Assembly (NCBI GenBank): GCA_003645455.1
Contig: QNFE01000003.1
Span: forward strand, 1,442 to 65,441
From: Gammaproteobacteria bacterium
Lineage (GTDB): Bacteria; Pseudomonadota; Gammaproteobacteria; QNFE01
DNA length: 64,000 bases
Direction of reading: 5' to 3'
Made by a program: the position numbers and the translations under genes. Below, one piece after another: positions 9,216-64,000 of the stretch; the first letter of the stretch is position 1, and every line of letters begins with the position of its first letter. Under the pieces are notes generated by a model, which saw only the letters and a list, made by a program, of their open reading frames with translations, ran no database searches and was not told the DNA's origin.

Positions 9216-9315
9216 TTTTTTTTAGATTTAGAATAGAGTTTTTAATTCTCAATTATCCATTCTCAATTTTCAATTATCCTCGTCTGCCTTGTTTTAAATT
9301 CCACCTTTTAAATTA

Positions 9316-31508: not shown

Positions 31509-31529
31509 ACAAGGGGACATGTCCCCTTG
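31509..31529. repeat. 22-nt perfect palindrome ACAAGGGGACATGTCCCCTTG(T)-type mini-element copy
   Basis: Same palindrome at 60387-60408, 60619-60640 and 62561-62582; imperfect second palindrome at 31466-31487. Confidence 0.6.
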
Positions 31530-48594: not shown

Positions 48595-49463
48595 CTGTTT
48601 TTAAAAGTTTCTTCAAAAATATTTGTTTTTAATTTTACCCATGTTTTTAAAAAAACCTTTTTATCAAAAAACTTTTCCAAAGATTGACGAGAATTTGTTG
48701 CAATTTGTTTTAATTTGCTACCATTTTTACCAATTATAATAGCCTTGTGATGTGTTTTTTCCACTAATATTACAGCTGATATTTTTACCATATTATTTTC
48801 TTCTATTATTTTTTCAATCTCAACCACTAATTGATAGGGCAGTTCTTGGTCTAATTGTTTTGTTAATTGCTCGCGAACGATTTCCGCACAAAGAAAATTG
48901 GTAGATTTATCTGTCAGCTCATCATTATTATAGATAAAATCAATTTTAGGTAAAAATGGTTGTATTTGATTTTTTAACAAGTCAATTGATATATTTTTTT
49001 TTGCAGATAAGGGTATAATTTGTGAAAAATTAAATAACTTATCTAATTTACTAATTTGCAACAACAGAACATTCTTATCTTTTATTAAGTCAATTTTTGT
49101 TAAAACCAACAAAACAGGAATATTTATTTTATGTTCAGTCATATGGTCTATAATTTTTTTATCTTCATTTGTAATTTTATTGGCTTGAATTAACAACAAC
49201 ACACAATCGACATCCTTTACGACAGATAGGGCAGTGCGATTTAATATTTGGTTAAATGTTTTAGTTTTCCCTAAATGAATTCCCGGTGTATCCATATAAA
49301 TGTATTGGCAAGTTTTTTGGGTATCTATTCCAATTATGTTGTCTCGTGTGGTTTGGACTTTTGATGCAGTTATCGATAATTTTGTTTTTAATATAGAGTT
49401 TAGAAGAGTTGACTTTCCTACATTTGGACGACCTATAATGGCAATAAACCCACACTGCTTCAT
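48591..49463 (-). CDS. era: GTPase Era
   Basis: GRPNVGKSTLLN G1 motif; DTPG; C-terminal KH. Confidence 0.85.
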   Translation of the reverse strand: MKQCGFIAIIGRPNVGKSTLLNSILKTKLSITASKVQTTRDNIIGIDTQKTCQYIYMDTPGIHLGKTKTFNQILNRTALSVVKDVDCVLLLIQANKITNEDKKIIDHMTEHKINIPVLLVLTKIDLIKDKNVLLLQISKLDKLFNFSQIIPLSAKKNISIDLLKNQIQPFLPKIDFIYNNDELTDKSTNFLCAEIVREQLTKQLDQELPYQLVVEIEKIIEENNMVKISAVILVEKTHHKAIIIGKNGSKLKQIATNSRQSLEKFFDKKVFLKTWVKLKTNIFEETFKNR

Positions 49464-50140
49464 TTATTTTTTATCTCAATTAGGGCTTCTTTGGCAGCTT
49501 TTTGTTCTGCTTTTTTGCGGCTTTTATCACGACCACTTGTTTTTATTCTTAAGGATTCAATAAAGCAACCAACAATAAAGTCTTGTTCGTGTGCCATTCC
49601 TTCTGTTTTTAGTAATTCATATGAGGGTAAATCTAATTTTTGAGATTGCAGATATTCTTGTAATATTGTTTTGGAATCTTTGAGTGATTTTAGATCAGGA
49701 ACAGCATTCAATCTATTACGATACAGATTAACTATTACATTTTGAGTAGTATCCATATTATAATAACTATCGAGATATATGGCGCCTATTATAGCCTCCA
49801 AAGCATCAGCTAAGATAGATTCACAGCGGAAACCTCCTGATTTTTTCTCTCCACTACCGAGATATAAAAAATCTCCAAGATCTATTTTATTGGCTATTGC
49901 ACAAAGAGTTTCTTTGCGAACCATGCTAGCACGCAGACGAGATAACTCCCCTTCTTTTAAGTTTGTGTGTCGCTTATAAATTTCACTAGTAATGACAAAA
50001 TTTAAAATACTGTCTCCTAAAAATTCCAATCTCTCGTTGTTTGTTTGTGATGCACTACGATGAGTTATAGAATTCCTTAATAGTTCCAAACTATTAAAGC
50101 GGTATTTTAAATTTTTCTCTAATATTTCAACATTATTCAT
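49460..50140 (-). CDS. rnc: Ribonuclease III
   Basis: ERLEFLGDSILNFVITSEIY signature; start at internal MNNVEIL. Confidence 0.85.
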   Translation of the reverse strand: MNNVEILEKNLKYRFNSLELLRNSITHRSASQTNNERLEFLGDSILNFVITSEIYKRHTNLKEGELSRLRASMVRKETLCAIANKIDLGDFLYLGSGEKKSGGFRCESILADALEAIIGAIYLDSYYNMDTTQNVIVNLYRNRLNAVPDLKSLKDSKTILQEYLQSQKLDLPSYELLKTEGMAHEQDFIVGCFIESLRIKTSGRDKSRKKAEQKAAKEALIEIKNK

Positions 50141-50166
50141 AATAAAAAATTTAAAAAAAAAGCATA

Positions 50167-50757
50167 TTATAACAAAATAGCAGGTAATTTTAAATTTTCT
50201 TTTGACAACATCGATATTAACCTTATCAGAGGTAGGCCCATAAGGGCAGTAGGGTCGTGTGATTCTATTGTTTTTAATAGACAAATACCTAATCCCTCCG
50301 ACTTGAAGCTACCAGCACAATTATATGGCTTTTCTGTAAATAAATAATTTTCTATTGTTTTTTTGCTATTGTTTCTAAAATGGACGATAGTTTCGATGTT
50401 TGCCACTTGAAAATTATTTGTTTTTGAGTTCAATAAACATATTCCTGAATGAAATTTAACACTGTTATTTGAAAAATTTGTCAACTGCTCTATCGCTTTT
50501 TGATGAGTCAGTGGTTTCCCTATAATTAAATCATTATAGGTTGCAACTTGATCGCCTCCAATGATTAAAGCATCTGTAAAATTTTTTTTTAAACTATCTG
50601 CTTTTTTTATACTTAGTCTTTGCACTAAATCTGATGCTTTTTCATATTTTAGTGGGGTTTCATCGCAGCATGGGGCAACAGCTTCAAAAGGTATTTGTAA
50701 TCTTTTTAATAAATTCTCTCGAATCTCTGATGTGGATGATAAGATAATTTTTTGCAT
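50167..50757 (-). CDS. maf: Maf-like nucleoside triphosphate pyrophosphatase
   Basis: ILSSTSEIRENLLKRL...IIGGDQV Maf motifs. Confidence 0.65.
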   Translation of the reverse strand: MQKIILSSTSEIRENLLKRLQIPFEAVAPCCDETPLKYEKASDLVQRLSIKKADSLKKNFTDALIIGGDQVATYNDLIIGKPLTHQKAIEQLTNFSNNSVKFHSGICLLNSKTNNFQVANIETIVHFRNNSKKTIENYLFTEKPYNCAGSFKSEGLGICLLKTIESHDPTALMGLPLIRLISMLSKENLKLPAILL

Positions 50758-50820
50758 TTTTTTTGTATTTTAATTATAAATTTGTTATTATACACTTTTT
50801 ATTTTTTATGGAAATTTAAT

Positions 50821-51012
50821 ATGAATCAACAGTATCGTGACACAACCACAAAAATGGAAGAAGCTGGTGTTAAAACTGACTACATAATAGGTTGGCAAGG
50901 TGGCTTTATGAAGCATCCAAAACGAGAAGAACAAAGACTTACCGAAGCCTATGAGGCAGGATACAATGACGGTTATGAGGGTAAAAATGAATCCTACGCT
51001 AACTGGTCGTAA
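50821..51012 (+). CDS. rmf: Ribosome modulation factor-like small protein
   Basis: GWQGGF...EAGYNDGYEG resembles RMF motifs; 63 aa. Confidence 0.35.
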   Translation: MNQQYRDTTTKMEEAGVKTDYIIGWQGGFMKHPKREEQRLTEAYEAGYNDGYEGKNESYANWS

Positions 51013-51535
51013 ATAAAATTTGTTTTAAAAAACTATAAATCTGCTTAATGTTATTGATATCTAACAAAGTCAAAGAGTTGGGTAGATTTATTTTATAATC
51101 ACTTGCCACCGCAATTATTTTTTTATCAATCCTGTATAACAATTCATTCTTTAACTCTTTTCTGTTTATTTCTATTTTAAGGTAATCTTCGTTTTTAAAG
51201 CCCTCAACAATAATTAAATCTAAATTATCCTGATTCAATCTGTTTAATTCGTCTTGCAAATTTGGTATATGTTCTTTTTTTCTATTAGCCATCATAACCC
51301 ACTTATATGGAGAACTCAACAAAACACAAGATGCTCCACAAGATCTGAGCTTATAACTATCTTTGCCAGGAATATCAATGTCAAAATTATGATGAGAACC
51401 TTTAATAACAGCAACATTTATGTTGTCATCATCAAACATTTTCAATAATTTACAAATGAGAGTAGTTTTTCCTGTGCCACTTTTGGCAACAAAACCAATA
51501 ATGGGTATTTTTTTCATATGATTAGGCATTTGCAT
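50999..51535 (-). CDS. mobB: Molybdopterin-guanine dinucleotide biosynthesis adapter MobB
   Basis: GFVAKSGTGKTTL P-loop. Confidence 0.65.
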   Translation of the reverse strand: MQMPNHMKKIPIIGFVAKSGTGKTTLICKLLKMFDDDNINVAVIKGSHHNFDIDIPGKDSYKLRSCGASCVLLSSPYKWVMMANRKKEHIPNLQDELNRLNQDNLDLIIVEGFKNEDYLKIEINRKELKNELLYRIDKKIIAVASDYKINLPNSLTLLDINNIKQIYSFLKQILFTTS

Positions 51536-51621
51536 AGTTTAACAAATAATACTTGCTAACAATACAATAATTTTATTTTAAATTTGTTAAAATATGCAAT
51601 ATCTAACAAGAAATTTTTTTA

Positions 51622-52854
51622 ATGACCAACACAACTCTTTTTATTATTTTATTTTTTTTAATAATTATTTCTGGATTCTTTTCAGGGTCTGAGACCGCTT
51701 TGATGAAAATTAACCGACACAGGTTAAAGTATCTAAAAAATAAAGGTCACAAAGCTGCAATAATTACCGAAAAACTACTGCAAAGAACAGATAAACTTAT
51801 CGGCATAATTCTGCTTGGCAATAATTTTGTCAATATATTAGCATCAGCTATTGCAACAATTATCGCAATGCGTATCTCAGGTGAGGGGGCAATTGCTATT
51901 GCAACCGGAACCCTAACCTTAGTTATTTTGATATTTGCCGAACTTGCCCCTAAAACTCTTGGAGCTCATCATCCTGAAAAATTTAGCTTTATATCAGCAT
52001 ACATTTATCGTATCTTGTTATTTGTTTTATACCCATTGATTTGGTTTATAAACCTAATTGCTAATAATTTATTAAAATTATTTGGAGTTAGTTTGGATGA
52101 TAAAAAAATTGATATAAGTCGCGATGAATTACGCAATATTGTCGAAGAAGCAAGTGGCAACAATCCTCATGATTATCTAACGATGCTGACAAATGTCATT
52201 GATTTGGAAAAAATTACTATTGATGATATAATGATTCCTCGCAACAAGATAATAGGTATAGATATCAACGAATCATGGCAAGAAAATGAGCAATTTATTG
52301 TGGATTCTCCATATATCCGGTTGCCAGTTTATTCTGACACCATCGATAATATCAAAGGCATAATACATTTAAAAACAATAATAAATTCACAAATTGACAA
52401 AAAAACTATCCTTGATAATTGTCGCGATCCAATATTTGCTCCTCAAAACACATCCCTCACCGATCAATTATTAAAATTTCAACTATTAAAAAGAAGAACT
52501 GCATTTGTTGTTGATGAATACGGTAGCATAGTAGGTCTTAGCACATTAGAGGATATCTTAGAGGAAATAGTGGGGGATTTTACCAATCAGAACTCCCATC
52601 AAACCAACAAAATAATAAAACAAAGTAAGGGCTCCTATGTAATAGATGCAAGCATCAGTTTGCGTTTATTGAATTCCAGCCTTGGATTGAAGCTCCCTTT
52701 GAACTCTGCTAAAACTCTCAATGGATATATTTTAGAATATTTGAAGGATATTCCTAAAAAAGGAGTGAGTTTTTTACTGCAAGATAACCCATTGGAGGTT
52801 ATGAGAATACAAAACAACCAAGTGCGAACAGTCAAGTTAATAAAAATAAAATGA
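51622..52854 (+). CDS. CNNM/HlyC/CorC-family transporter (DUF21 + CBS pair + CorC_HlyC)
   Basis: N-terminal 4-TM DUF21, tandem CBS region, C-terminal transporter-associated domain. Confidence 0.7.
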   Translation: MTNTTLFIILFFLIIISGFFSGSETALMKINRHRLKYLKNKGHKAAIITEKLLQRTDKLIGIILLGNNFVNILASAIATIIAMRISGEGAIAIATGTLTLVILIFAELAPKTLGAHHPEKFSFISAYIYRILLFVLYPLIWFINLIANNLLKLFGVSLDDKKIDISRDELRNIVEEASGNNPHDYLTMLTNVIDLEKITIDDIMIPRNKIIGIDINESWQENEQFIVDSPYIRLPVYSDTIDNIKGIIHLKTIINSQIDKKTILDNCRDPIFAPQNTSLTDQLLKFQLLKRRTAFVVDEYGSIVGLSTLEDILEEIVGDFTNQNSHQTNKIIKQSKGSYVIDASISLRLLNSSLGLKLPLNSAKTLNGYILEYLKDIPKKGVSFLLQDNPLEVMRIQNNQVRTVKLIKIK

Positions 52855-54215
52855 GCAAAGATAAGATTCAATATATTTGTAAAAATTGTCAAGCTACTGC
52901 AATAAAATGGTCAGGGCAATGCACAAAATGTCATAATTGGAATTGTTTAGAGCAAATCAAGGTTGCTCTTAATATGCCAGATAAAATGATTGCGACAAAC
53001 TATGCAGGATCTCAAAAACAAAGCGAGGTTATGTATTTATCACAAATAAAACCACAGCAACAAATTCGCAACACAACCAACATAAGTGAATTAGATCGTG
53101 TGCTCGGAGGTGGCTTGGTTATAGGATCGGTAGTTTTAATCGGTGGAGATCCTGGAATAGGAAAATCAACCCTTCTTTTGCAAGCTGCGATCAATCTTAG
53201 CACAACATACAAAGTTTTGTATATAACCGGAGAAGAATCTCTGCAACAGGTGTCACTTCGAAGTAAAAGATTAGAAATGCCCCCTAATGATTTGATGATT
53301 TTATGTGAGACAGGAATAGAGCATATCCAAGAGATAACAGCAAAACATCAACCGCAAGTTTTAGTTATTGATTCTATTCAAACTATATATAGTACCAACA
53401 TAAACTCATCTCCTGGTAGCGTATCACAGGTAAAAGAGTGCACAGCAGCATTGGTTCGTTTTGCCAAACAAACCCAAACATCAGTTTTTATCATAGGTCA
53501 TGTTACCAAAGAAGGAGCCATAGCAGGACCTAGAATTTTGGAGCACATGGTTGATACTGTTTTATATTTTGAAGGAGATAGCAACGCAAGGTTTCGTATT
53601 ATTCGCTGTGTTAAAAATCGCTTTGGGGCAGCTGATGAGATAGGTGTATTTGTGATGAGCGACAAGGGGCTTTTGCCTGTATCAAATCCATCTGCTATTT
53701 TTTTATCACAACACTCATCTGATGTATCAGGATCTGTTATAATGGTGACATATGAGGGAACAAGACCGCTATTGTTAGAGATTCAAGCCTTGGTTGATGT
53801 AGCATACGGTCAGACAAGAAGATTAACCTTGGGGCTTGATCACAATCGTTTAGCAATGTTGCTTGCAGTATTGCATCAACATACAGGGCTTGCTATGTTT
53901 GACCAAGATGTCTATATCAATATTGTAGGAGGAGTTAGAATAAATGAAACTGCGGCAGATTTAGCCGTAGTATGTGCCTGCATATCATCATTTAAAAAAA
54001 TAGCAATATCTAACAAAACTATTATTTTTGGCGAGATAGGTTTAGCAGGTGAAATTCGTCCTGTTCCAAATGGGGAGCAAAGATTACAAGAGGCATTAAA
54101 GCATGGTTATACACATGCTATAATACCACGAGCTAATCACCCAAAAAATAAAATAAAGAATATGAATATAGTATCTATAGATAGGCTGTCACAGGTTATA
54201 GACCACATATTGTAG
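52851..54215 (+). CDS. radA: DNA repair protein RadA/Sms
   Basis: C4 zinc finger CKNCQ...CTKCHNW; GGDPGIGKSTL Walker A; Lon-like C-terminus. Confidence 0.85.
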   Translation: MSKDKIQYICKNCQATAIKWSGQCTKCHNWNCLEQIKVALNMPDKMIATNYAGSQKQSEVMYLSQIKPQQQIRNTTNISELDRVLGGGLVIGSVVLIGGDPGIGKSTLLLQAAINLSTTYKVLYITGEESLQQVSLRSKRLEMPPNDLMILCETGIEHIQEITAKHQPQVLVIDSIQTIYSTNINSSPGSVSQVKECTAALVRFAKQTQTSVFIIGHVTKEGAIAGPRILEHMVDTVLYFEGDSNARFRIIRCVKNRFGAADEIGVFVMSDKGLLPVSNPSAIFLSQHSSDVSGSVIMVTYEGTRPLLLEIQALVDVAYGQTRRLTLGLDHNRLAMLLAVLHQHTGLAMFDQDVYINIVGGVRINETAADLAVVCACISSFKKIAISNKTIIFGEIGLAGEIRPVPNGEQRLQEALKHGYTHAIIPRANHPKNKIKNMNIVSIDRLSQVIDHIL

Positions 54216-54226
54216 ATATTGTCAAA

Positions 54227-55057
54227 TTAGTTATCAATATTAGCCTGTTTGGCTTGCATTATTATCCCAAAATAAGGGTGATCAAAATAATAATTCTCAC
54301 CTAATTCTATGGTTTGATTTTGTTGCAATCTATATATATTGGTTTTTTTAAAGTCAAGTTTTGCAAACCAACTATCCAAAAAATCTAAGGCTTTGATGTT
54401 GATAATTTGATCTAATTTTTTTGTAGGTTTTAACATAACAACGTCTACATAAAAAATAAATTTTTTTTTATCGTTATATTTCAATAGAATAGACCCATCA
54501 AATTCGTGTAATTTTTTAACATTATGACTATTATTGTCTTTGATTTGTCTTATGAATTCTGGGTGTAATTTATTTTGTTTTTCGTTTATAATTTTCATAA
54601 CAAACTGTTGTCTCCATTGTTGTTGTAAATCATCAAAGGCTATAATGCGAGTCTTGTTATATTTTATGTTGATAGCATTTAATATTCCAGTAGGGCTAAA
54701 AATTAGATGCTCCTTACCATTTGTTATTCTCACAGGGTTATTAACATCAACAACAGGCTGTATATAACTGATATATTTAATTATTTTGTATTTACCTTCG
54801 TTTGATTTTAATTTATCTAACACGTCTTTTAACAGGGTTGGTTGAGTTATTTTAAAGCCGTATTCTTCAAGTTTTTTTAGAGTAAAATATTGTTCTGTTT
54901 CAGGAATAGATGTGTTTTTATTATTGTCCGTATTCTTATTTTTAACAACATTTAAGTGTTTAAAAATAATTAATTCTACCTGTATATTATTTTTGTCGTC
55001 TGATATGGCAGGCATAGCATAAAATAGGGCAATGGCAAATATTATAAGTTTTTTCAT
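54227..55057 (-). CDS. Secreted hypothetical protein (C-terminal YYFDHPYFGII motif)
   Basis: Signal peptide; no assignable function. Confidence 0.3.
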   Translation of the reverse strand: MKKLIIFAIALFYAMPAISDDKNNIQVELIIFKHLNVVKNKNTDNNKNTSIPETEQYFTLKKLEEYGFKITQPTLLKDVLDKLKSNEGKYKIIKYISYIQPVVDVNNPVRITNGKEHLIFSPTGILNAINIKYNKTRIIAFDDLQQQWRQQFVMKIINEKQNKLHPEFIRQIKDNNSHNVKKLHEFDGSILLKYNDKKKFIFYVDVVMLKPTKKLDQIINIKALDFLDSWFAKLDFKKTNIYRLQQNQTIELGENYYFDHPYFGIIMQAKQANIDN

Positions 55058-58000
55058 AGTTTAATTTTCTCTATAAGTGACACAATAAAGTTTATTTTTT
55101 CATCATCTGTGGCAAGTGTTTTGTTAAATTCTAACCTATTATTATTTTTTAATTTATATATTTCAGGTTTGTCGGCAATTAGTTTAATTAAATTTGTCAT
55201 ATTTATTTTAGGATTATTTAAAATTTCCATATAACCACCGTCCTCATTCAATTGCATAGTTTTTATATTCATATGTTGCAATTGTAACCTAATTTGAGTT
55301 TGAAAAATCAAGTTTTTTAATTGTTTTGGTAATAAACCAAATCTATCAATTAACTCTAATTGAATACCATATAGAGATTTTTTATCAACCGAAGCGGCAA
55401 TTTTTTTATAAAATACTAAACGTGTATTGATGTCAAAAATATAGGTCTCAGGGATCAGGGCAGGAATATCTATTTCAATACTGGTTTTTTTCTCATCCAT
55501 TAATAGGTTATCAAGATTAGTAACCTTGCCTGTTTTTAGGATTGCAATTGTTTTTTGCAATATTTCCAAATAAAGATTGTAACCTATCTGTTGCATCTGT
55601 CCGCTTTGCTCTTCGCCCAAGATTTCTCCTGCACCACGGATTTCCATATCGTGGCTTGCTAAGGTAAAACCTGCTCCGAGATTATGAGTTTTTTCTATTG
55701 CCTCTAATCTTTTGATGCCATTTTTTGTTATTAAATTTTTATCAGGTATCAGTAAATAAGCATAGGCTTGATGAGACGATCTACCGACTCGTCCTCGTAA
55801 TTGATGCAATTGTGCTAAGCCTAATTTATCAGCACGGTTGATTATAATAGTGTTAGCAGCTGCTATATCTATACCAGATTCAATAATAGTTGTTGCCACC
55901 AAAATATCAAATTTTTGCTCTGAAAACTCCATCATAACTCTCTCTAATTGAGTTTCGTTCATTTGTCCGTGGGCAAAATCAATCTTAGCATTTGGCAATA
56001 AAGAAGATAAGTTGCGACACATTTTGTTGATGGTTTGCACATTGTTATGCAAAAAATAAACCAAACCTCCTCTTGATATTTCACGATTTATAGCATCAAC
56101 GATAATGTTATCATCCCATTGAGTTATAAAAGTTTTTATCTCTAATCTCTCAGGAGGTGGCGAAGCAATTATAGACAATTCTTTTAGTCCTGATAGACCA
56201 AAATTCAATGTTCTAGGAATAGGGGTGGCAGTCATGGTTAGAATATCAATATTAAGCCGATAGGTTTTTAATTTTTCTTTATGACGAACTCCAAAACGAT
56301 GCTCCTCGTCAATAACAATAAGCCCTAGGTTTTTAAATTTATTATCACGACTTAATAATTTATGGGTACCAATAACAATATCCATCTCACCTGATAGCAT
56401 TTTTGCACGAATTTCTTTTGTTTGTTTGGTCGTAGAAAAACGCGATAAAGCTGCAATATTGATAGGGTGATTAGCAAATCTATCAATAAAACTTTCATGG
56501 TGTTGCATAGCAAGTAGAGTGGTGGGGACTAAAATTATAGTCTGTCTATCAGATCCTGCACAAATAAAAGCAGCTCTCATAGCAACTTCTGTTTTACCAA
56601 AACCTACATCTCCGCAGATAACTCGATCCATAGGTTGTTTTTTTGCCATATCATTTTCAATATCATAGATAGCTTTTGCCTGATCTGTTGTTTCAATAAA
56701 TTCAAACTCTCGAACAAATTTTTGATAAGATTTTTTATCAATTTTGTGGGAGAAGCCCTCTACCATCTGCCTTTTTGCATTCAATTCTAAAAGGGCAACC
56801 GCTGTATCGCGAATTTTTTTAGTGGCTTTTTTTTTCTCTTTTTCCCATCTGTTATTACCTAAACTATGCAAAGGAGCATTTTCAGAGCTTGTTCCAGTAT
56901 AACGAGAAATCAGATTTAAATTAGCAACCGGGATATAAAGATAAGATTCGTTAGCAAAATTAAGCTTAATAAACTCCGTCTGGCTGTTTTTTAAAAATAA
57001 CCCCAATCCACCAAAACGAGAAATGCCATAATCCATATGAACCAGAGCATCACCCAGATTCAAATCTTCTAAATTGTTAATAATATTGCCTGAATATGTA
57101 TTTTTTTGTTGGGTTTTGCTGTCAATAATAGCTTTATATTTAGTTAATGTATCATCACAGATAATAGATGTATCTATTTGTTTTAATAGATAATTATAAT
57201 TTGATGACGGTGCGACAATTAATTTTATTCTGCTGTTATTTTCTTTGAGTTGTTGATATGTTTCACAAAGAGTGGAATCTATTGCAAAGTCAGATAGGGC
57301 ATCTTGAATAATTAAAGCCTTGCCTGCTGAATGACAGGTGATAATAATTGATCCTGTGTGTGTTTGGGAATAAGCAACAAAAGATTTAATAGCATTTTTA
57401 TCAATTTTAGAATAGTTAAATTTATCAATAACTTGCAGTGTTTTTTTGAGAGGTTTTTTGTCTTCGGTAAAATAATAATTTTCTTTACTTTCTATTGTTT
57501 TTTTTATCGTTGCAGGGTCAAGATAAAGCTGTGAAACATCTAAAATAGGTTTATTTTTTTCTGTTAAATAAGCATATCTGCTATGACATATCTTAAAAAA
57601 ATCATCCATACTCTGCATAGATTTATCAAAAACAAAAGTTGCATAATTCTCAGGTAAATAATTAAATATAGTTGCCATCTCTTTGAAAAACAAAGGAATA
57701 TAATATTCAACTCCTGCGAATGTTTTGCCCTCCGATATTTTTTCATACATTGTATCAGAGCGGTAGGTGGGGAACTTTAAACGATAATTGTTACGAAAAA
57801 AATCAATGGAGTTGTCGTCCAATAAAAACTCTTTGGCAGGCAAAACTTCTATTTTATCAATTTTTTCAATAGTTCGTTGGTCAGATGTAGCAAAAATTCT
57901 AATAGATTCAATCTCATTATCAAATAACTCAATCCTAAAAGGATTTTTAGCAGCCATGGGATACAAATCAATAATTGATCCACGAATAGCATATTCTCCG

Positions 58001-58485
58001 TGTTTTTCTACCTGTGATACTCGGGTCCACATCATCTGTTCTAATTGAGATTTTAAATCATCTATATCCAATATATCGTTGTTTTTTAAAAGAAATACAT
58101 TTGATTTCAAAAAATTACTGGGAACTATTTTTTGCATTAAAACATTTGCAGTTATGATTAAAAAACCTTTTTTAATTGTTGGTAACCTATATAGGGTTTT
58201 AAGTCTTTGGGAAATAATTTGATTAAAAGGAGAAAAGCCATCATATGGCAGAGTTTCATAATCAGCAAAATGCATAATGTTAGTGTCATCTACATCTGTC
58301 ATAACAAACTTTAAAGTTTTTTCTAAATCAGTTGCATGTTTTTTGTCGCTACATATCAATAAGCAAAATTTTTTCTCGTTTTTATTTTTTTGCATAAAAT
58401 GCTTTAACATCAAAGATGTGGCATATAAAGGCACAGCAGGATTTATAGGTTTTAAAGCAAAATCAAAACTCATACAACTAAACAA
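55054..58485 (-). CDS. mfd: Transcription-repair coupling factor Mfd
   Basis: 1143 aa; GDVGFGKTEVA helicase motif I; DEEHRFGV motif II. Confidence 0.85.
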   Translation of the reverse strand: MFSCMSFDFALKPINPAVPLYATSLMLKHFMQKNKNEKKFCLLICSDKKHATDLEKTLKFVMTDVDDTNIMHFADYETLPYDGFSPFNQIISQRLKTLYRLPTIKKGFLIITANVLMQKIVPSNFLKSNVFLLKNNDILDIDDLKSQLEQMMWTRVSQVEKHGEYAIRGSIIDLYPMAAKNPFRIELFDNEIESIRIFATSDQRTIEKIDKIEVLPAKEFLLDDNSIDFFRNNYRLKFPTYRSDTMYEKISEGKTFAGVEYYIPLFFKEMATIFNYLPENYATFVFDKSMQSMDDFFKICHSRYAYLTEKNKPILDVSQLYLDPATIKKTIESKENYYFTEDKKPLKKTLQVIDKFNYSKIDKNAIKSFVAYSQTHTGSIIITCHSAGKALIIQDALSDFAIDSTLCETYQQLKENNSRIKLIVAPSSNYNYLLKQIDTSIICDDTLTKYKAIIDSKTQQKNTYSGNIINNLEDLNLGDALVHMDYGISRFGGLGLFLKNSQTEFIKLNFANESYLYIPVANLNLISRYTGTSSENAPLHSLGNNRWEKEKKKATKKIRDTAVALLELNAKRQMVEGFSHKIDKKSYQKFVREFEFIETTDQAKAIYDIENDMAKKQPMDRVICGDVGFGKTEVAMRAAFICAGSDRQTIILVPTTLLAMQHHESFIDRFANHPINIAALSRFSTTKQTKEIRAKMLSGEMDIVIGTHKLLSRDNKFKNLGLIVIDEEHRFGVRHKEKLKTYRLNIDILTMTATPIPRTLNFGLSGLKELSIIASPPPERLEIKTFITQWDDNIIVDAINREISRGGLVYFLHNNVQTINKMCRNLSSLLPNAKIDFAHGQMNETQLERVMMEFSEQKFDILVATTIIESGIDIAAANTIIINRADKLGLAQLHQLRGRVGRSSHQAYAYLLIPDKNLITKNGIKRLEAIEKTHNLGAGFTLASHDMEIRGAGEILGEEQSGQMQQIGYNLYLEILQKTIAILKTGKVTNLDNLLMDEKKTSIEIDIPALIPETYIFDINTRLVFYKKIAASVDKKSLYGIQLELIDRFGLLPKQLKNLIFQTQIRLQLQHMNIKTMQLNEDGGYMEILNNPKINMTNLIKLIADKPEIYKLKNNNRLEFNKTLATDDEKINFIVSLIEKIKL

Positions 58486-58746
58486 AAAAGAAAAAATTAT
58501 AGGTATTGTAAACCAAAACTAAAACCAATATTCAATTATTAACAAAACCATAAGATTCTAAGTTTGTTATAATGTTATTCATAACTAACAAATAACTTCG
58601 CATAATGTATATTATGTTAAATTACATAAAATAATAGATGGCAGCAATTTGACAGGATACATATGGGAGTGATTTTCTTGTTGGGGACGATTTATGGATG
58701 AGGAATAAAAAATATGGTTTTTTTATGGTTTTTTTGAAGTTTGTTA

Positions 58747-59991
58747 TCAAAGCCATTCTGCAATGACTTTGATATAATCATCTAAATTCTTTATGCTGTC
58801 ATTAGGAGATGATTTTGAGCTGGAATTGCTTGCAGGTAAGTTATGAGCAATATTATTCCTGATATTATTTATTTTTTTAAAAGTCTTGCCTATTTCTATT
58901 TCTTTTGTTGATAATTTTTTGTTGTTCTTATAATCACTCCAAGAAAATAAAATATCCTTAGCTTCTTTTCTGTTATCTTTATTTGTGTCGTCTAATTTTT
59001 CTTTTTTGCACATAATAGATACACTTGCCTCAGCAAGGCACATATACGCCATAGAAAAATTTTTATTTTCATGATACCATTTAGATAAATTAAGTTGAAA
59101 TTCTGGCAGTGATTGATTTTTGAATCTATTAAAAAAATCTTCTAAATCAGAAGCAATCAATGGCAATATTTTGTTGGATGATGTTTTAAAATTATCAATA
59201 GTTTGTGATAAACTGTTTATGCTTTTTTGTAAGGATCTCATATCTGAAATACTAATGGCATCAGATAATTGATTAAATTTTCCTGAAATATTTTTGTCAT
59301 CAATGTTGGTATTAATTAGTTTTTTAAGTTCAAAACTGTTACCATAGTTTTTAAGATTACTAATTGCCTGACCCCAACTTAACAACTCATAAAATATAGA
59401 AACATCTATGATTACAGAAGCCTCATCTTTTTTTAACATAGCATAAAAGATTCCTTTTATCTTAAAACCTGCACGAATTTTGCCAAATTCTGCCACAATT
59501 AAAGACATTATAGAATGAGACCTAAAAAGATGAGTAATGTCTAAATACAACTGATCTTGCTCGCTTAAGTTCTCTATTATTTTTTGAAATTTTTCAAAAA
59601 TACCCCATAATTCCTCTTGATTGTCTCCTGGAAGCACAACAAAACACTCAGATCCAGGTAATTTTTTACTAATTTTATCATTAAGTGGCTGTAAAAAGCA
59701 ATCATCAATATCTGCATTTTCTTTTTTTTCTAAAATTTTATATGCATAGTCACTGTCATCATTATCACTATAAATTTCGTTAATATTGTCCCACATTGAT
59801 TCGCTTGTACCAATTAAAAATAATCTATCAATTTTATACTTTTCAATTATAGGGTTGGTGGCATATTGTTGATTTCTATATAACTTATTGTTATTTTCAA
59901 ATTTGTAAGTAGTTGTAGTATAATTGTTTTTATTGTTATCGTTTTTAGCAGATTTGCCAGTTCCCAGCAAACTTATAAGAATCTTTGCCAT
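58747..59991 (-). CDS. Csx1/Csm6-like CARF-HEPN protein
   Basis: N-terminal CARF signatures (AKILISLLGTGK...; DITHLFRSHS); C-terminal HEPN R-X4-H (NNIRNNIAHNL); adjacent to CRISPR array. Confidence 0.6.
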   Translation of the reverse strand: MAKILISLLGTGKSAKNDNNKNNYTTTTYKFENNNKLYRNQQYATNPIIEKYKIDRLFLIGTSESMWDNINEIYSDNDDSDYAYKILEKKENADIDDCFLQPLNDKISKKLPGSECFVVLPGDNQEELWGIFEKFQKIIENLSEQDQLYLDITHLFRSHSIMSLIVAEFGKIRAGFKIKGIFYAMLKKDEASVIIDVSIFYELLSWGQAISNLKNYGNSFELKKLINTNIDDKNISGKFNQLSDAISISDMRSLQKSINSLSQTIDNFKTSSNKILPLIASDLEDFFNRFKNQSLPEFQLNLSKWYHENKNFSMAYMCLAEASVSIMCKKEKLDDTNKDNRKEAKDILFSWSDYKNNKKLSTKEIEIGKTFKKINNIRNNIAHNLPASNSSSKSSPNDSIKNLDDYIKVIAEWL

Positions 59992-60243
59992 TATTGTCAT
60001 TCCCCCCTATTTTGTAAAAAATTACACAATAACACAAAGTATGTTGATAAACAAAATTATCTTTTAAGGTTTTATGCTGTTATTCAAAGCAGGTAAAATA
60101 TTTGGCAAAGATTGGTCAGATATTAGGCTCAAATGAATCATGTCTTTGTGTTTAATTTTTTCAATCGACAGATATCAAGAACTGTAGCTATTTTTATAAT
60201 TGATAGGCCGTTTTTATACATTGGTTTGGACTATATTATTCTC

Positions 60244-60796
60244 ACCCTTATTCCCTCCCTTCTCTTTGTGCTTTACTAAATGCAGCCTCTTGGATATTTA
60301 ACAGTTAACAGTTATTAGTTGAGTTATCACTATTAATTTTTAACTATTCATTATTAACTATTTCAGTCGGGTCTCGGTCTCTGACAACAAGGGGACATGT
60401 CCCCTTGCCAAATTAGGGTGTCTTAATCCCCTCGGTGTTTTGTAATTGACAGAGGTAGTTAGAAAATTAGTATATTTGTGCCAGTGGTGAATTTTTAAAA
60501 AATAAACATAACTTGTTATGTTGTTTTTTACAAAATTTGACAATGGTGCAAAGATGCTGATTTAATGACTGCCTATGTTGATTACAAGACGCCATATGTC
60601 GGGTCTCGGTCTCTGACAACAAGGGGACATGTCCCCTTGTCAATAAAATAACCAGGTCTTAATCCCCTTTATGTCGAGCTTCTAATAATTGAAAATGGAG
60701 AGTTGATAATTGAGAATTTTGCATAACCTTACCTTGTGTTTTGTTTTATCCCATAATTTTGTTATACACAATTTTTGATTTTTAATTTTCAATTAT
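60244..60796. CRISPR. Degenerate array end: three split CRISPR repeats, each interrupted by a 100-165-nt insertion, with two spacers derived from the palindromic mini-element
   Basis: 5-prime repeat parts at 60246-60262, 60420-60437, 60656-60676; 3-prime repeat parts at 60366-60385, 60595-60617, 60797-60820; spacers 60386-60419 and 60618-60655. Confidence 0.55.
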
Positions 60797-61266
60797 TGTC
60801 GTCGGGTCTCGGTCTCTGACTTTAATAAACTTACGGCACTTATGCAATGTAAAAGCAGTCTTAATCCCCTTTATGTCGGGTCTCGGTCTCTGACCGAAAG
60901 GTTTTGTTCGTTCTGTTTCGTATACGAAAGGTCTTAATCCCCTTTATGTCGGGTCTCGGTCTCTGACCCTGTCAGTTACTGATGGTGGGATTAAAGATGC
61001 GTCTTAATCCCCTTTATGTCGGGTCTCGGTCTCTGACCAGAAGAAGTAATCGCCTGAAGAGGTAGTAAAATACAGTCTTAATCCCCTTTATGTCGGGTCT
61101 CGGTCTCTGACACAGAAATAATTGGTCGTGGCGAATGGCATAGTGCTTTGTCTTAATCCCCTTTATGTCGGGTCTCGGTCTCTGACTCTACCTCCTGTTT
61201 TTCACTTTTAAAAACAATTACTTACAGACCCCCGTTAACGGAAATCTGTCGTAGCGAAAATCTGAC
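60797..61266. CRISPR. CRISPR array: 37-nt repeat GTCTTAATCCCCTTTATGTCGGGTCTCGGTCTCTGAC, 5 full repeats (60858, 60931, 61001, 61075, 61150), one partial leading repeat, possible degenerate terminal repeat 61227-61266; spacers 33-40 nt
   Basis: Direct inspection: identical 37-mers regularly spaced with unique 33-38-nt spacers. Confidence 0.85.
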
Positions 61267-61369
61267 TATTTTTTTGAGTCAAAAACTGGTGTTTATTATA
61301 CAATTTTATGGTTTTAAAAGTCAAGGTTTTTTTTGATTTTGGGTGGCTTTGAGAGATTAGATTTCCTCC

Positions 61370-61560
61370 CTGCGGTCGCGATGCTTTGTTTCTTCGTTTC
61401 TGGCAATGACAGTTCATCCGTCACTGCGAGCGAGCTTGGCGAAACGTGGCAGTCTCTCTTTTTACCCCAAGAGATTGCTTCGTTCCTCGTAATGACGGCA
61501 ACGAATTACCTAACTTATACAGCAATGACGGCTCCCTAAAAGAGATTGCCATATTCACAC
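61370..61560. repeat. MITE family 1 copies between array and cas operon
   Basis: GTCACTGCGAGCGAGC..., CTCGTAATGACGG, CAATGACGG motifs. Confidence 0.5.
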
Positions 61561-61588
61561 ACTCACTTGCAATGATGAGGTTTAATAA

Positions 61589-61861
61589 TTAAAAAGGACA
61601 GTCATCATCATAAGCAGTATAACCGTTATTGTTATTATAAGAGTTGTGTTTTTGATAGACTTTGCAGAATATTTCCATATTTGTGACTATTTCTTGGAAT
61701 ACTGTCCGATCTTCATAGGCGATATGAAATGGAGCATCGTTTATCATCTGGTCGGTTTTTTTGGCAATTATTGCAGGATCGATAAAATAATCAGGCAACA
61801 GACGAGCTGCATTAATTTCTTGGGTTATTAAATCACATCTTAAATCGTGCTTGGTTTTCAT
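61589..61861 (-). CDS. Hypothetical 90-aa protein, last gene of cas operon (ATGA overlap with cas2)
   Basis: No motif recognised; two Cys near C-terminus; not convincingly Cas4. Confidence 0.3.
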   Translation of the reverse strand: MKTKHDLRCDLITQEINAARLLPDYFIDPAIIAKKTDQMINDAPFHIAYEDRTVFQEIVTNMEIFCKVYQKHNSYNNNNGYTAYDDDCPF

Positions 61862-62160
61862 TTATTTCTCCTTATTTTAGTAAAATTTTTTGGTAAAAGA
61901 TAATCTAATGGCGTATCTTTGCCATAGATTGAAATTTTGGTTTTTTTATCAAAACGATATATTTTTATATCATCTTGTTTTGGATCAATTATTTTATTAA
62001 TATCTGTTTGATATTCTAAGATTTGTCTGTTCGTTGTGTCTGCCATATATACCGAATATTGAATAGGCAAGGTTATGGCACACAGGTATTGGTGAACTTT
62101 TCTCAATCGTTTTTTGCATTTTATATCGTAACAAATTAAATATAAATTTGTATGTGCCAT
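61858..62160 (-). CDS. cas2: Cas2 (copy b)
   Basis: LYLICYDIKCKKRLRKVHQYL...IQYSVYMA...DDIKIYRF Cas2 signature. Confidence 0.7.
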   Translation of the reverse strand: MAHTNLYLICYDIKCKKRLRKVHQYLCAITLPIQYSVYMADTTNRQILEYQTDINKIIDPKQDDIKIYRFDKKTKISIYGKDTPLDYLLPKNFTKIRRNK

Positions 62161-62163
62161 TTT

Positions 62164-63255
62164 TTAAAATAACTCCGCTTGAATGGGGGTTGTTATATTT
62201 AACACTACATCGTCATCGTTGTCATTGATGAGGCTGTTTTTGAGTTGATAACTTTGTAATCTTAACCATCTTCTGTATGGTGGTAGCCATTTTTCTAATT
62301 GATGATAATAGATTTTACGCCCTGTTTTTGATAACAAGCATTTTTTAGCATTTTTAATAAAATGTTCTTGGCGAATATCTTGCTCGGCAAACAAACGCCA
62401 GATAAAATATTCCGCCGAGGGGCGAATTGGCTCTATTATATCAGAGGCAAGAGCAGCATGATTGTAGGATGGTTTATGTAGAAAACCTATGTATGGATCC
62501 AGACCTGCTTGATATTAACTCGGCAGTTAAATACATGTATTCAACTTCCCATAAGAACTAACAAGGGGACATGTCCCCTTGTCAAAATAGAGAAGTTTAT
62601 TGTTGCCAGTTTAATAAATAGCTTTGACAGCTTGGCTGTATAAAATTGTATAAGTCAAAGACAACACCGAATTAACAGGATCTGGGGCAGGATGTTTGGC
62701 TCGTTTGGTAAAATTCAAAGATGGAGCAAATAATTGAGTATAGGCTTGAAAGAAAAATTTGGAGGCACAGCCTTCTATACCGAGTAACTGGTTGGTATTG
62801 ATGGGTTCTGTCAGAGATTTATTTGTCAATAAAAATTTTAATTTATCATAGGTTTGCTGTAAAATTTTATCTTTATCGGTGCGAGTGCTGGTGATTTTTT
62901 TAATCAATTTTAGCTGTTTGGTGATTTTGTTGGTAATTTGATGGGTTGCCAGATTAAGCGGAATATCTTTTTTTTCTAACCATCTATATTGTGAGATTCT
63001 GCCTTTGGCATCTTTGTGAGGCGAGCCAAAGATTATGACAGGTTCCACTGATCTTTTGTTGATAAAAACAATGCTGACATTATGCTTTTGGCAAGCATAT
63101 AATAACTTGGCGTTGAGATTGCAGTGACCGTAGATTATTATTCTCTCGATGAGCTGCAAAGGTAAGGCTTGATAAGTTTTATCGGCTTTGAGTTTGATCC
63201 TTTTGCCATCGGTATCAAGGTTGATGTGTTGTTTGTCAATATAGATTGTTTTCAT
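62164..63255 (-). pseudogene. cas1: cas1 interrupted in frame by a 96-nt palindromic mini-element insertion (62518..62613) carrying stop codons
   Basis: N-terminal part ends ...LSLTYTILYSQAVKAIY*; C-terminal part resumes QAGLDPYIGFLHKPSYNHAALASDIIEPIRP...; same frame on both sides; catalytic E/H/D present. Confidence 0.7.
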
Positions 63256-63263
63256 TTTAGTTG

Positions 63264-63557
63264 TTATCCGATATATATCATATTGTTTTCAGCAGGCTTC
63301 AAAGCAATGCCACAGGTTATCAGAGGATTATTTTTAGGTAATTTTATGATTAGAAAACGATCTGTTTTTTTGTTTAGTTGGGGGATGATCTGGTTTTTTA
63401 TATTCTGGCAATTTGCCGGGGTCAGATAACACTCATAGACCGATTTTTGCCATTGATAAGAATAGGATTGCAAAATCTTGCATATACGAGATCGGGTGTT
63501 ATGACAACTTATGTCATAGGATAATAAATAAAAATGATTATTTGGTTTTAAGCTCAT
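63264..63557 (-). CDS. cas2: Cas2 (copy a), upstream of cas1
   Basis: HFYLLSYDISCHNTRSRICKILQSYSYQWQKSVYECYL...DRFLIIKL Cas2 signature. Confidence 0.65.
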   Translation of the reverse strand: MSLKPNNHFYLLSYDISCHNTRSRICKILQSYSYQWQKSVYECYLTPANCQNIKNQIIPQLNKKTDRFLIIKLPKNNPLITCGIALKPAENNMIYIG

Positions 63558-63694
63558 AACAACAATGGTGGAATTAAAAAAAACCACTATTGTATATTAT
63601 TTTTTTAAATATGTGTTTTATGACAAGCTTGTCATTTTTTTTGGCGAGTAAAAATAATGCCAGTCCATTTTTTAAGTGGTCAGGGTGGTTATCT

Positions 63695-64000
63695 CTTTTT
63701 GAAGTCGTCATTGCGAGGAATTCGCCGCAGAGCGGATACCGTGGCAATCTCTTGAGGGTTTAGTGTGTAACCTCAGGAGATTGCCACGGCTACGCCTCGC
63801 AATGACGGGGTTATGTTTTGGTGCTGTTGCGGTGTTTTATATTAACTTATTTCTTGTCTGCGAATTACCTAACTTATACAGCAATGACGGGGTTTTTTGT
63901 GGCAGTCTTTTGGTTTAGCCAAGAGATTGCTTCGCTACGCTCGCAATGACGGCTCCCTAAAAGAGGTTGCTTCGTTCCTCGCAATGACGGGGTTTTTTGT
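63695..64000. repeat. MITE family 1 copies (window edge)
   Basis: GTCATTGCGAGGAATTCGCC...CGCAATGACGG repeated. Confidence 0.55.

Follow-up and report, generated by a model that had tools for sequence, protein, structure and literature searches.

A Csx1-family CARF-HEPN gene adjoining a type III-A CRISPR locus in an uncultured gammaproteobacterium

The csx1 gene and the locus it adjoins

We analysed a 64,000-nucleotide stretch of DNA (hereafter the window) from an uncultured gammaproteobacterial metagenome-assembled genome (MAG; G+C content approximately 31 %), with a focus on csx1, a minus-strand gene near its end. A first-pass annotation had described the product as a Csx1/Csm6-like CARF-HEPN protein apparently orphaned from any cyclic oligoadenylate (cOA) synthase. 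The open reading frame (ORF) and the three peptides quoted in that description, ILISLLGTGK, DITHLFRSH and RNNIAH, were all found, and the family assignment was borne out by curated hidden Markov models (HMMs), a high-confidence structure model, Foldseek and motif conservation. Its orphan status was not: csx1 stands last in a CRISPR-cas locus that continues past the end of the window, and the orphan reading is thereby refuted. We consider it highly probable that the product of csx1 is an ancillary ribonuclease of the Csx1 family (CARF, helical linker and HEPN; CARF2 clade) belonging to this type III-A locus. The features of the gene are listed below.

58747..59991, minus strand: csx1 (TIGR02221 / 'Csx2' family; PADLOC CARF2--CARF_HEPN), 414 aa, interval including the stop codon, from the ORF, HMMs and homologue starts
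59401..59991, minus strand: CARF domain with a Rossmann-like beta-alpha core, approximately residues 1-197
Residues 8-13, within the CARF domain: Gly-rich loop LLGTGK
59953-59982, minus strand: ILISLLGTGK, residues 4-13, read from the sequence
59518-59541, minus strand: DxTH motif DITHLFRS of the CARF domain, residues 151-158
59515-59541, minus strand: DITHLFRSH, residues 151-159, read from the sequence
59110..59400, minus strand: helical middle domain, approximately residues 198-294, counterpart of the HTH-like linker domain of Csx1
58750..59109, minus strand: HEPN domain, approximately residues 295-414
58843..58860, minus strand: HEPN catalytic motif R378-N-N-I-A-H383 (RNNIAH, R-X4-H), from sequence and alignment

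Read from its first ATG, the ORF occupies 58747..60000 (minus strand) and encodes 417 aa, a start also used by GenBank (RLA08813.1). We place the likely start at 59991 (414 aa) because all 30 of the 30 aligned homologues open with MAK(I/V)L. A G-rich, Shine-Dalgarno-like run is present about 10 nt upstream of this second ATG, and an exact protein look-up returned a match for the 414 aa form, which starts MAK, and none for the 417 aa form.

Upstream of csx1 and on the same strand, the window contains a CRISPR array and, at a distance of 1.9-3.6 kb, a cas2-cas1-cas2 adaptation module, neither of which the first-pass annotation had connected with the gene.

60366-61186, minus strand: whole CRISPR array of 37-nt repeats, beginning 375 bp upstream of the csx1 start
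60858..61186, minus strand: intact part of the array, five identical 37-nt repeats (GTCAGAGACCGAGACCCGACATAAAGGGGATTAAGAC, minus-strand reading) and four spacers of 33-38 nt
60366..60857, minus strand: decayed tail of the array, in which three repeats are split or partial, with three more spacers and two short inserts bearing inverted ends
61858..62160, minus strand: cas2, 100 aa (Pfam CRISPR_Cas2, E 6.4e-16; TIGR01573)
62164..63255, minus strand: cas1, interrupted, with the N-terminal 214 aa at 62611-63255 and the C-terminal part, from approximately 62514, in a separate ORF
63264..63587, minus strand: second cas2-like gene upstream of cas1, 107 aa (Pfam CRISPR_Cas2, E 6.1e-15; PADLOC Cas2, E 1.1e-14)

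We infer a minus orientation for the array because the 3' end of its repeat (minus-strand reading, ...GGGGATTAAGAC) resembles the ...GGGGATTGAAA(C) repeats found beside csx1 relatives, because the degenerate repeats lie at 60.3-60.8 kb, towards csx1, and because the minus strand also encodes the cas genes. Rfam CRISPR-DR8 matches on the plus strand were weak and below the gathering score, and were not used for orientation.

The rest of the locus was recovered by an exact-sequence look-up, which matched two contigs of the European Nucleotide Archive (ENA) metagenome assembly ERZ27227324. One (L001) corresponds to window positions 48747-60654 at 99.99 % identity. The other, k141_1148694 (L003; in complete form L084, 15,107 bp), corresponds to 60403-64000 at 100 % identity over 3598 bp and extends 11,509 bp past the window end. 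Positions past 64000 are given below as window-equivalent coordinates derived from this contig, and all listed genes are on the same strand as csx1.

64071-65624 (L084 9886-11439), minus strand: 517-aa protein, PADLOC CARF4--CARF_PDDEXK (E 2.5e-14), with the invariant FDILLVL...HLECKS motif
Between the 517-aa CARF4 protein and Csm5, same strand: AAA-ATPase_like/PDDEXK_9 protein
L084 6659-8308: Csm5 (PADLOC, 1.6e-24)
Csm4: TIGR01903, 126 bits
Csm3: TIGR02582, 222.5 bits
Csm2: TIGR01870
70876-73158 (L084 2352-4634): Cas10/Csm1, TIGR02578, 517.7 bits against a cut-off of 170
73165-74511 (L084 999-2345): 448-aa Csm6-like protein, TIGR02710 / CARF1--CARF_HEPN

The cas10 gene thus begins 6.9 kb past the window end and approximately 10.9 kb from the csx1 start. 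Its product carries FAGGDDFF, with the cyclase GGDD at residues 562-565, and has no HD dipeptide anywhere in its sequence. Contiguity was also supported by GenBank records, in which the csx1 protein (RLA08813.1, 'MAG: TIGR02221 family CRISPR-associated protein [Gammaproteobacteria bacterium]') and RLA08819.1 are encoded on one 76,977-bp contig, as is the RadA of the window. The named RadA proteins closest to the latter share just 58-61 % identity with it (Granulosicoccaceae, Leucothrix, Thiotrichaceae). RLA08819.1 is the GenBank form (513 aa) of the 517-aa neighbour, the first gene past the window, and the five intervening accessions agree with the number of ORFs, five, that separate the two genes. 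The genes for interference and signalling (cas10, csm2-5 and the three CARF effectors) were all full-length, intact ORFs with their catalytic motifs.

Family, fold and relatives of the csx1 protein

The csx1 protein is a member of the NCBIfam equivalog TIGR02221 (cas_TM1812), which it matched over residues 7-229 with an E-value of 1.6e-36 and 126.4 bits, above the curated cut-off of 76.25. It differs in nothing of substance from this family (cas_TM1812, 'Csx2'), whose name is identical to that given in GenBank. The PADLOC model CARF2--CARF_HEPN (PDLC01826) covered residues 1-412 (E 2.2e-106), and further matches were obtained to a 'Csx1/Csm6 CARF+HEPN' model (E 1.7e-64) and to several models named 'Csx1, CAS-III associated signalling'. 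A weak match to TIGR02549 (DxTHG motif) covered residues 151-172; Pfam-A returned Csx1_CARF only, below threshold, and the public entry for the protein carries a precomputed PF27248 MJ1674_2nd annotation. Among 5.8 billion proteins searched, 62 relatives were found, the closest outside the source genome being 52 % identical, and those with names were labelled 'TIGR02221 family CRISPR-associated protein' or 'Csx2 family protein'. Neighbouring genes matched models that take their names from the Thermotoga maritima genes TM1811 (Csm1), TM1810 (Csm2) and TM1809 (Csm3), and TM1812, the namesake of the csx1 family, has the adjacent number.

In an alignment of 31 sequences, 30-52 % identical to the query, T153, H154, F156, R157 and S158 of the DxTH motif and I377, R378, I381 and H383 of the HEPN motif were invariant, and A382 was kept in at least 90 %. 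The R-X4-H motif proposed in the first-pass annotation therefore held on alignment. Since all family-invariant residues are retained, the protein does not look like the relic that had also been suggested.

An AlphaFold2 (AF2) model of the protein had a predicted local distance difference test (pLDDT) score of 89.5, and a Foldseek search with it returned 8y7g (E 5.7e-14). The nearest solved structures were the Csx1 of Sulfolobus islandicus (6qzt / 6r9r, 'DxTHG family') and Csx1-Crn2 of Marinitoga (8y6z / 8y7g), to which the csx1 protein is only 15-20 % identical. Its three domains superposed on solved Csx1, with an N-terminal CARF sensor and a C-terminal HEPN domain bearing R-X4-6-H, and the locus likewise has the expected form, a type III locus adjoining the gene and encoding a Cas10 with a cyclase GGDD site. 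The Marinitoga protein is a 563-aa fusion with a ring nuclease, whereas the 414-aa csx1 protein lacks Crn2. The domains of Csx1-Crn2 have been mapped as CARF 1-181, HTH 182-305 and HEPN 306-444, with catalytic residues R401, N402 and H406 (PMC11317161), and the spacing of R401-N402-...-H406 is the same as that of R378-N-x-x-x-H383 here (PMC11317161). The S. islandicus enzyme forms hexamers and the Marinitoga enzyme tetramers.

Csm6 shares the architecture of CARF sensor and HEPN RNase with the csx1 protein, and many csx1 relatives occupy the 'csm6 position' directly after csm5. The comparators considered were the cyclic hexa-adenylate (cA6)-activated Csm6 of Enterococcus italicus (6tug) and Streptococcus thermophilus (8pe3) and the cyclic tetra-adenylate (cA4)-activated Csm6 of Thermus thermophilus (5fsh). 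Identity with Csm6 (CARF1 clade) was rejected: the best PADLOC matches were all CARF2/Csx1, no Csm6 Pfam domain was found and Csm6 structures matched far more poorly. By type, the protein belongs with Csx1 (CARF2 clade) and not with Csm6.

The genomic context of the family was examined in 80 genome loci encoding relatives (27-47 % identity), a set that did not include the source genome, which is absent from the GTDB species representatives scanned. These came mostly from Campylobacterota, Bacillota and cyanobacteria. Type III effector-complex genes were detected within 10 kb at 40/80 loci, by tblastn with the Csm proteins of the present locus, and a CRISPR-like array at 30/80; both counts are lower bounds, as many of the loci with no match were on short contigs and Cmr-type complexes would escape a tblastn with single sequences. 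The order cas10-csm2-csm3-csm4-csm5 followed by the csx1 homologue recurred in many loci (e.g. L004, L006, L009, L043, L045 and L067). On this analysis we regard csx1 as an ordinary, already known Csx1-type CRISPR accessory RNase, for which GenBank already gives the family name.

Proposed activation and alternative readings

By analogy with the solved enzymes closest to the csx1 protein and with type III signalling in general (PMC11317161; PMC11229360), the Csm complex (Cas10/Csm1 and Csm2-5), loaded with CRISPR RNA (crRNA) from the adjacent array, would bind a complementary invader transcript. The 8-nt tag of the crRNA would derive from the repeat end ...AUUAAGAC. The Palm/GGDD cyclase site of Cas10 would then produce a cyclic oligoadenylate, most likely cA4, which would be bound by the CARF dimer of the csx1 protein. 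The helical domain would relay the resulting change, uniting two HEPN R-N-x-x-A-H motifs as a composite active site, and single-stranded RNA would be cleaved non-specifically, slowing cell and invader alike. The family and fold of csx1, the conservation of its motifs and its linkage to a III-A operon with an intact cyclase motif are established; for the cA4 ligand, for dimerization, for cleavage of RNA by the protein and for a locus that is still active, we rely on inference.

Three considerations favour cA4. The two best structural matches are both cA4 enzymes, the CARF4-PD-(D/E)xK class (Can2/Card1) represented in the same locus depends on cA4, and activators are seldom mixed within one locus (PMC11229360). 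Csx1 is the commonest type III effector, found in 411/1113 loci, and is cA4-activated (PMC11229360). The csx1 protein could instead belong to the same family yet respond to another activator (cA6, as for Csm6, or another Cas10 product), or serve mainly as a ring nuclease or HTH-like transcription regulator. The correspondence of its middle domain to the 'HTH' domain of Csx1 would suit the latter role, and some Csm6 CARF domains also degrade their activator (PMC10897365). We think any of these very unlikely.

Several observations weigh against reading csx1 as a Csx1-family ribonuclease of this type III-A locus. A profile of 31 homologues searched against PDB sequences gave only a spurious match to BRG1 (E 0.55), and a 566-aa relative gave no match to PDB sequences; the link to characterised Csx1 consequently rests on profile models and fold. 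Literature on TIGR02221/TM1812/Csx2 yielded only Csx2x-named proteins and no biochemical study of the subfamily, so that ligand and RNase activity are assigned by analogy. The array stands between csx1 and the csm operon, and the best promoter-like match of the region is in the presumed leader of the array. A search of the 15.1-kb contig L084 recognised no cas6, its ORFs of 223 aa and 98 aa matching no Cas6 model, and two of the four intact spacers, searched in viral contigs, had no exact match. Finally, the locus is worn, with cas1 interrupted and three trailing repeats split.

This wear raises the possibility that csx1 is a genuine Csx1-type effector in a decaying locus that has lost immunity, the gene being idle or used through cross-talk with another system. 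A cas1 broken by a stop-containing insert of about 90 nt, trailing repeats split by insertions so that only four intact spacers are left, the missing cas6 and the lack of viral matches for the two spacers searched all fit such decay. However, every interference gene is intact, full-length and furnished with its catalytic motifs, the five repeats of the array are identical, and loss of cas1 stops acquisition, not interference. The cas6 search covered 15.1 kb, outside which lie some 1.5 kb of the 76,977-bp contig in GenBank and the remaining genome, and type III systems often rely on a cas6 encoded elsewhere. As the interference and signalling genes are all intact with their motifs, we regard a decaying and idle locus as a minority possibility, unlikely but compatible with the family assignment. 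We hold it extremely improbable, on the other hand, that csx1 is an orphan or relic CARF-HEPN protein that has no linked cOA synthase and is either unfed or fed by an unlinked type III system, a cyclic oligonucleotide-based antiphage signalling system (CBASS)-like cyclase or another cyclase. Within the 64-kb window, tblastn with the locus's own Cas10 and Csm2-5 found nothing, no ORF of at least 300 aa carried GGD[DE], no CD-NTase-like gene was present and the ORFs at 1-50 kb were housekeeping in appearance, so the first-pass statement that no Cas10 is nearby was accurate for the window itself. It does not extend beyond it: the Cas10/Csm1-Csm5 operon follows directly on a contig that is 100 % identical to the window and on the same GenBank contig, the array and cas2-cas1-cas2 adjoin csx1, and the invariant residues of the family are all kept. 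The class of stand-alone CARF effectors was rejected for csx1, with cas10/csm1 on contiguous sequence just past the window. The orphan call was an artefact, because the window stops before cas10.

The lack of an HD motif in Cas10 indicates that the locus is probably signalling-only. Such a form is not unusual, as only 65 % of the III-A Cas10s surveyed in PMC11229360 have a recognisable HD domain. Three CARF effectors, each of a different clade, are encoded in the locus (CARF1, CARF2 in csx1, and CARF4), and the co-occurrence of three effectors has been described as rare (PMC11229360).

Adaptation genes, inserts and other features of the locus

Two further features of the adaptation side were noted.

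61295..61324, minus strand: best sigma-70-like match of the region, TTGACT-18-TATAAT (11/12), in the presumed leader that precedes the first repeat, a consensus match only
61589..61861, minus strand: 90-aa ORF overlapping the end of cas2, with no family match (Pfam, NCBIfam, PADLOC), also called on the ENA contig

The two parts of cas1 matched Pfam Cas_Cas1, the N-terminal part (E 4.7e-40) covering profile positions 1-208 of 283 and a 76-aa piece covering positions 250-283. The insert between them (about 90 nt, approximately 62518-62610) contains stop codons and the palindrome AACAAGGGGACATGTCCCCTTGTCAA, which is also found at 31511 and within two of the trailing spacers. The N-terminal part ends ...AVKAIY followed by a stop; a further ORF takes up the sequence again at the catalytic core (YQAGLDPYIGFLH...DIIEPIRP). 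Gene calls on the ENA contig L084 show cas1 cut short to the identical N-terminal fragment of 214 aa. Spacer acquisition is probably defunct. A cas1 gene flanked by two cas2 genes was also seen in one relative locus (L020), and a cas2-like gene lies beside cas1 in two others (L044 and L057).

The three trailing repeats of the array are split at much the same point, which in every case leaves the 3' 20 nt whole. One of the inserts, 124 nt long (60677-60800), is bounded by duplicated GTCG and carries inverted ends of 34 nt; a 91 % copy of the end of this element is present at 9244-9277. The other, of 160 nt (60438-60597), is one long imperfect palindrome with 79-nt arms. Both may be small elements resembling miniature inverted-repeat transposable elements (MITEs) that landed in CRISPR repeats. 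An 18-nt perfect palindrome, AAGGGGACATGTCCCCTT, was found in four copies against 0 expected (31511-31528, 60389-60406, 60621-60638 and 62563-62580). Three of these are in the CRISPR locus, two immediately behind a half repeat, within trailing 'spacers', and the third within the insert of cas1, and the copies share only about 26 nt. Clusters of short G+C-rich repeats at 61340-61550 and 63680-64000 (...GATTGCTTCGTTCCTCG(T/C)AATGACGG..., ...CGAATTACCTAACTTATACAGCAATGACGG...) flank the adaptation genes in surroundings of 27-36 % G+C, and look like a genome-wide family of small palindromic repeats.

Past the window, the 517-aa CARF4 protein is sparsely represented, with four proteins in total among the 5.8 billion, counting the GenBank form of the query. 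It had no Pfam or NCBIfam match. Its AF2 model, built on the four-sequence alignment, had a pLDDT of 49.4, and the Foldseek matches from this poor model (Card1, E 1.3e-5; Cam1; Can2) were weak and suggestive at most. With the PADLOC match as usable evidence, the protein looks like a Can2/Card1-type nuclease with an extra 200 aa or so. At 549 aa, against 321-339 positions in the PADLOC Csm5 models, the Csm5-like protein is of unusual length, and it has a K/Q/E-rich C-terminal extension of approximately 150 aa. The 223-aa ORF (L084 317-988, minus strand) lies beside the csm6-like gene on the opposite strand and matched no Pfam, NCBIfam or PADLOC model.

It is conceivable, although we judge it distinctly unlikely, that this is a type III-A system whose HD-less Cas10 relies wholly on signalling and feeds a CARF1-HEPN, a CARF2-HEPN (csx1) and a very rare CARF4-PD-(D/E)xK effector at once, while palindromic mobile elements dismantle its adaptation side in cas1 and in successive repeats at about the same position, a pattern that would point to an element with CRISPR repeats as its target.

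In sum, the biological weight of csx1 itself is small, as Csx1 is the commonest ancillary effector of type III systems and this copy is in its normal place. The lesson for method is that calling an accessory defence gene an orphan near the edge of a window requires a view past that edge; here the array and cas1/cas2 inside the window already contradicted the call. What is mildly unusual (three CARF clades, a sparsely represented 517-aa CARF4 nuclease and palindromic insertions) belongs not to csx1 but to the locus, which neatly exemplifies a type III-A system that is probably HD-less and signalling-only and has three CARF effectors.

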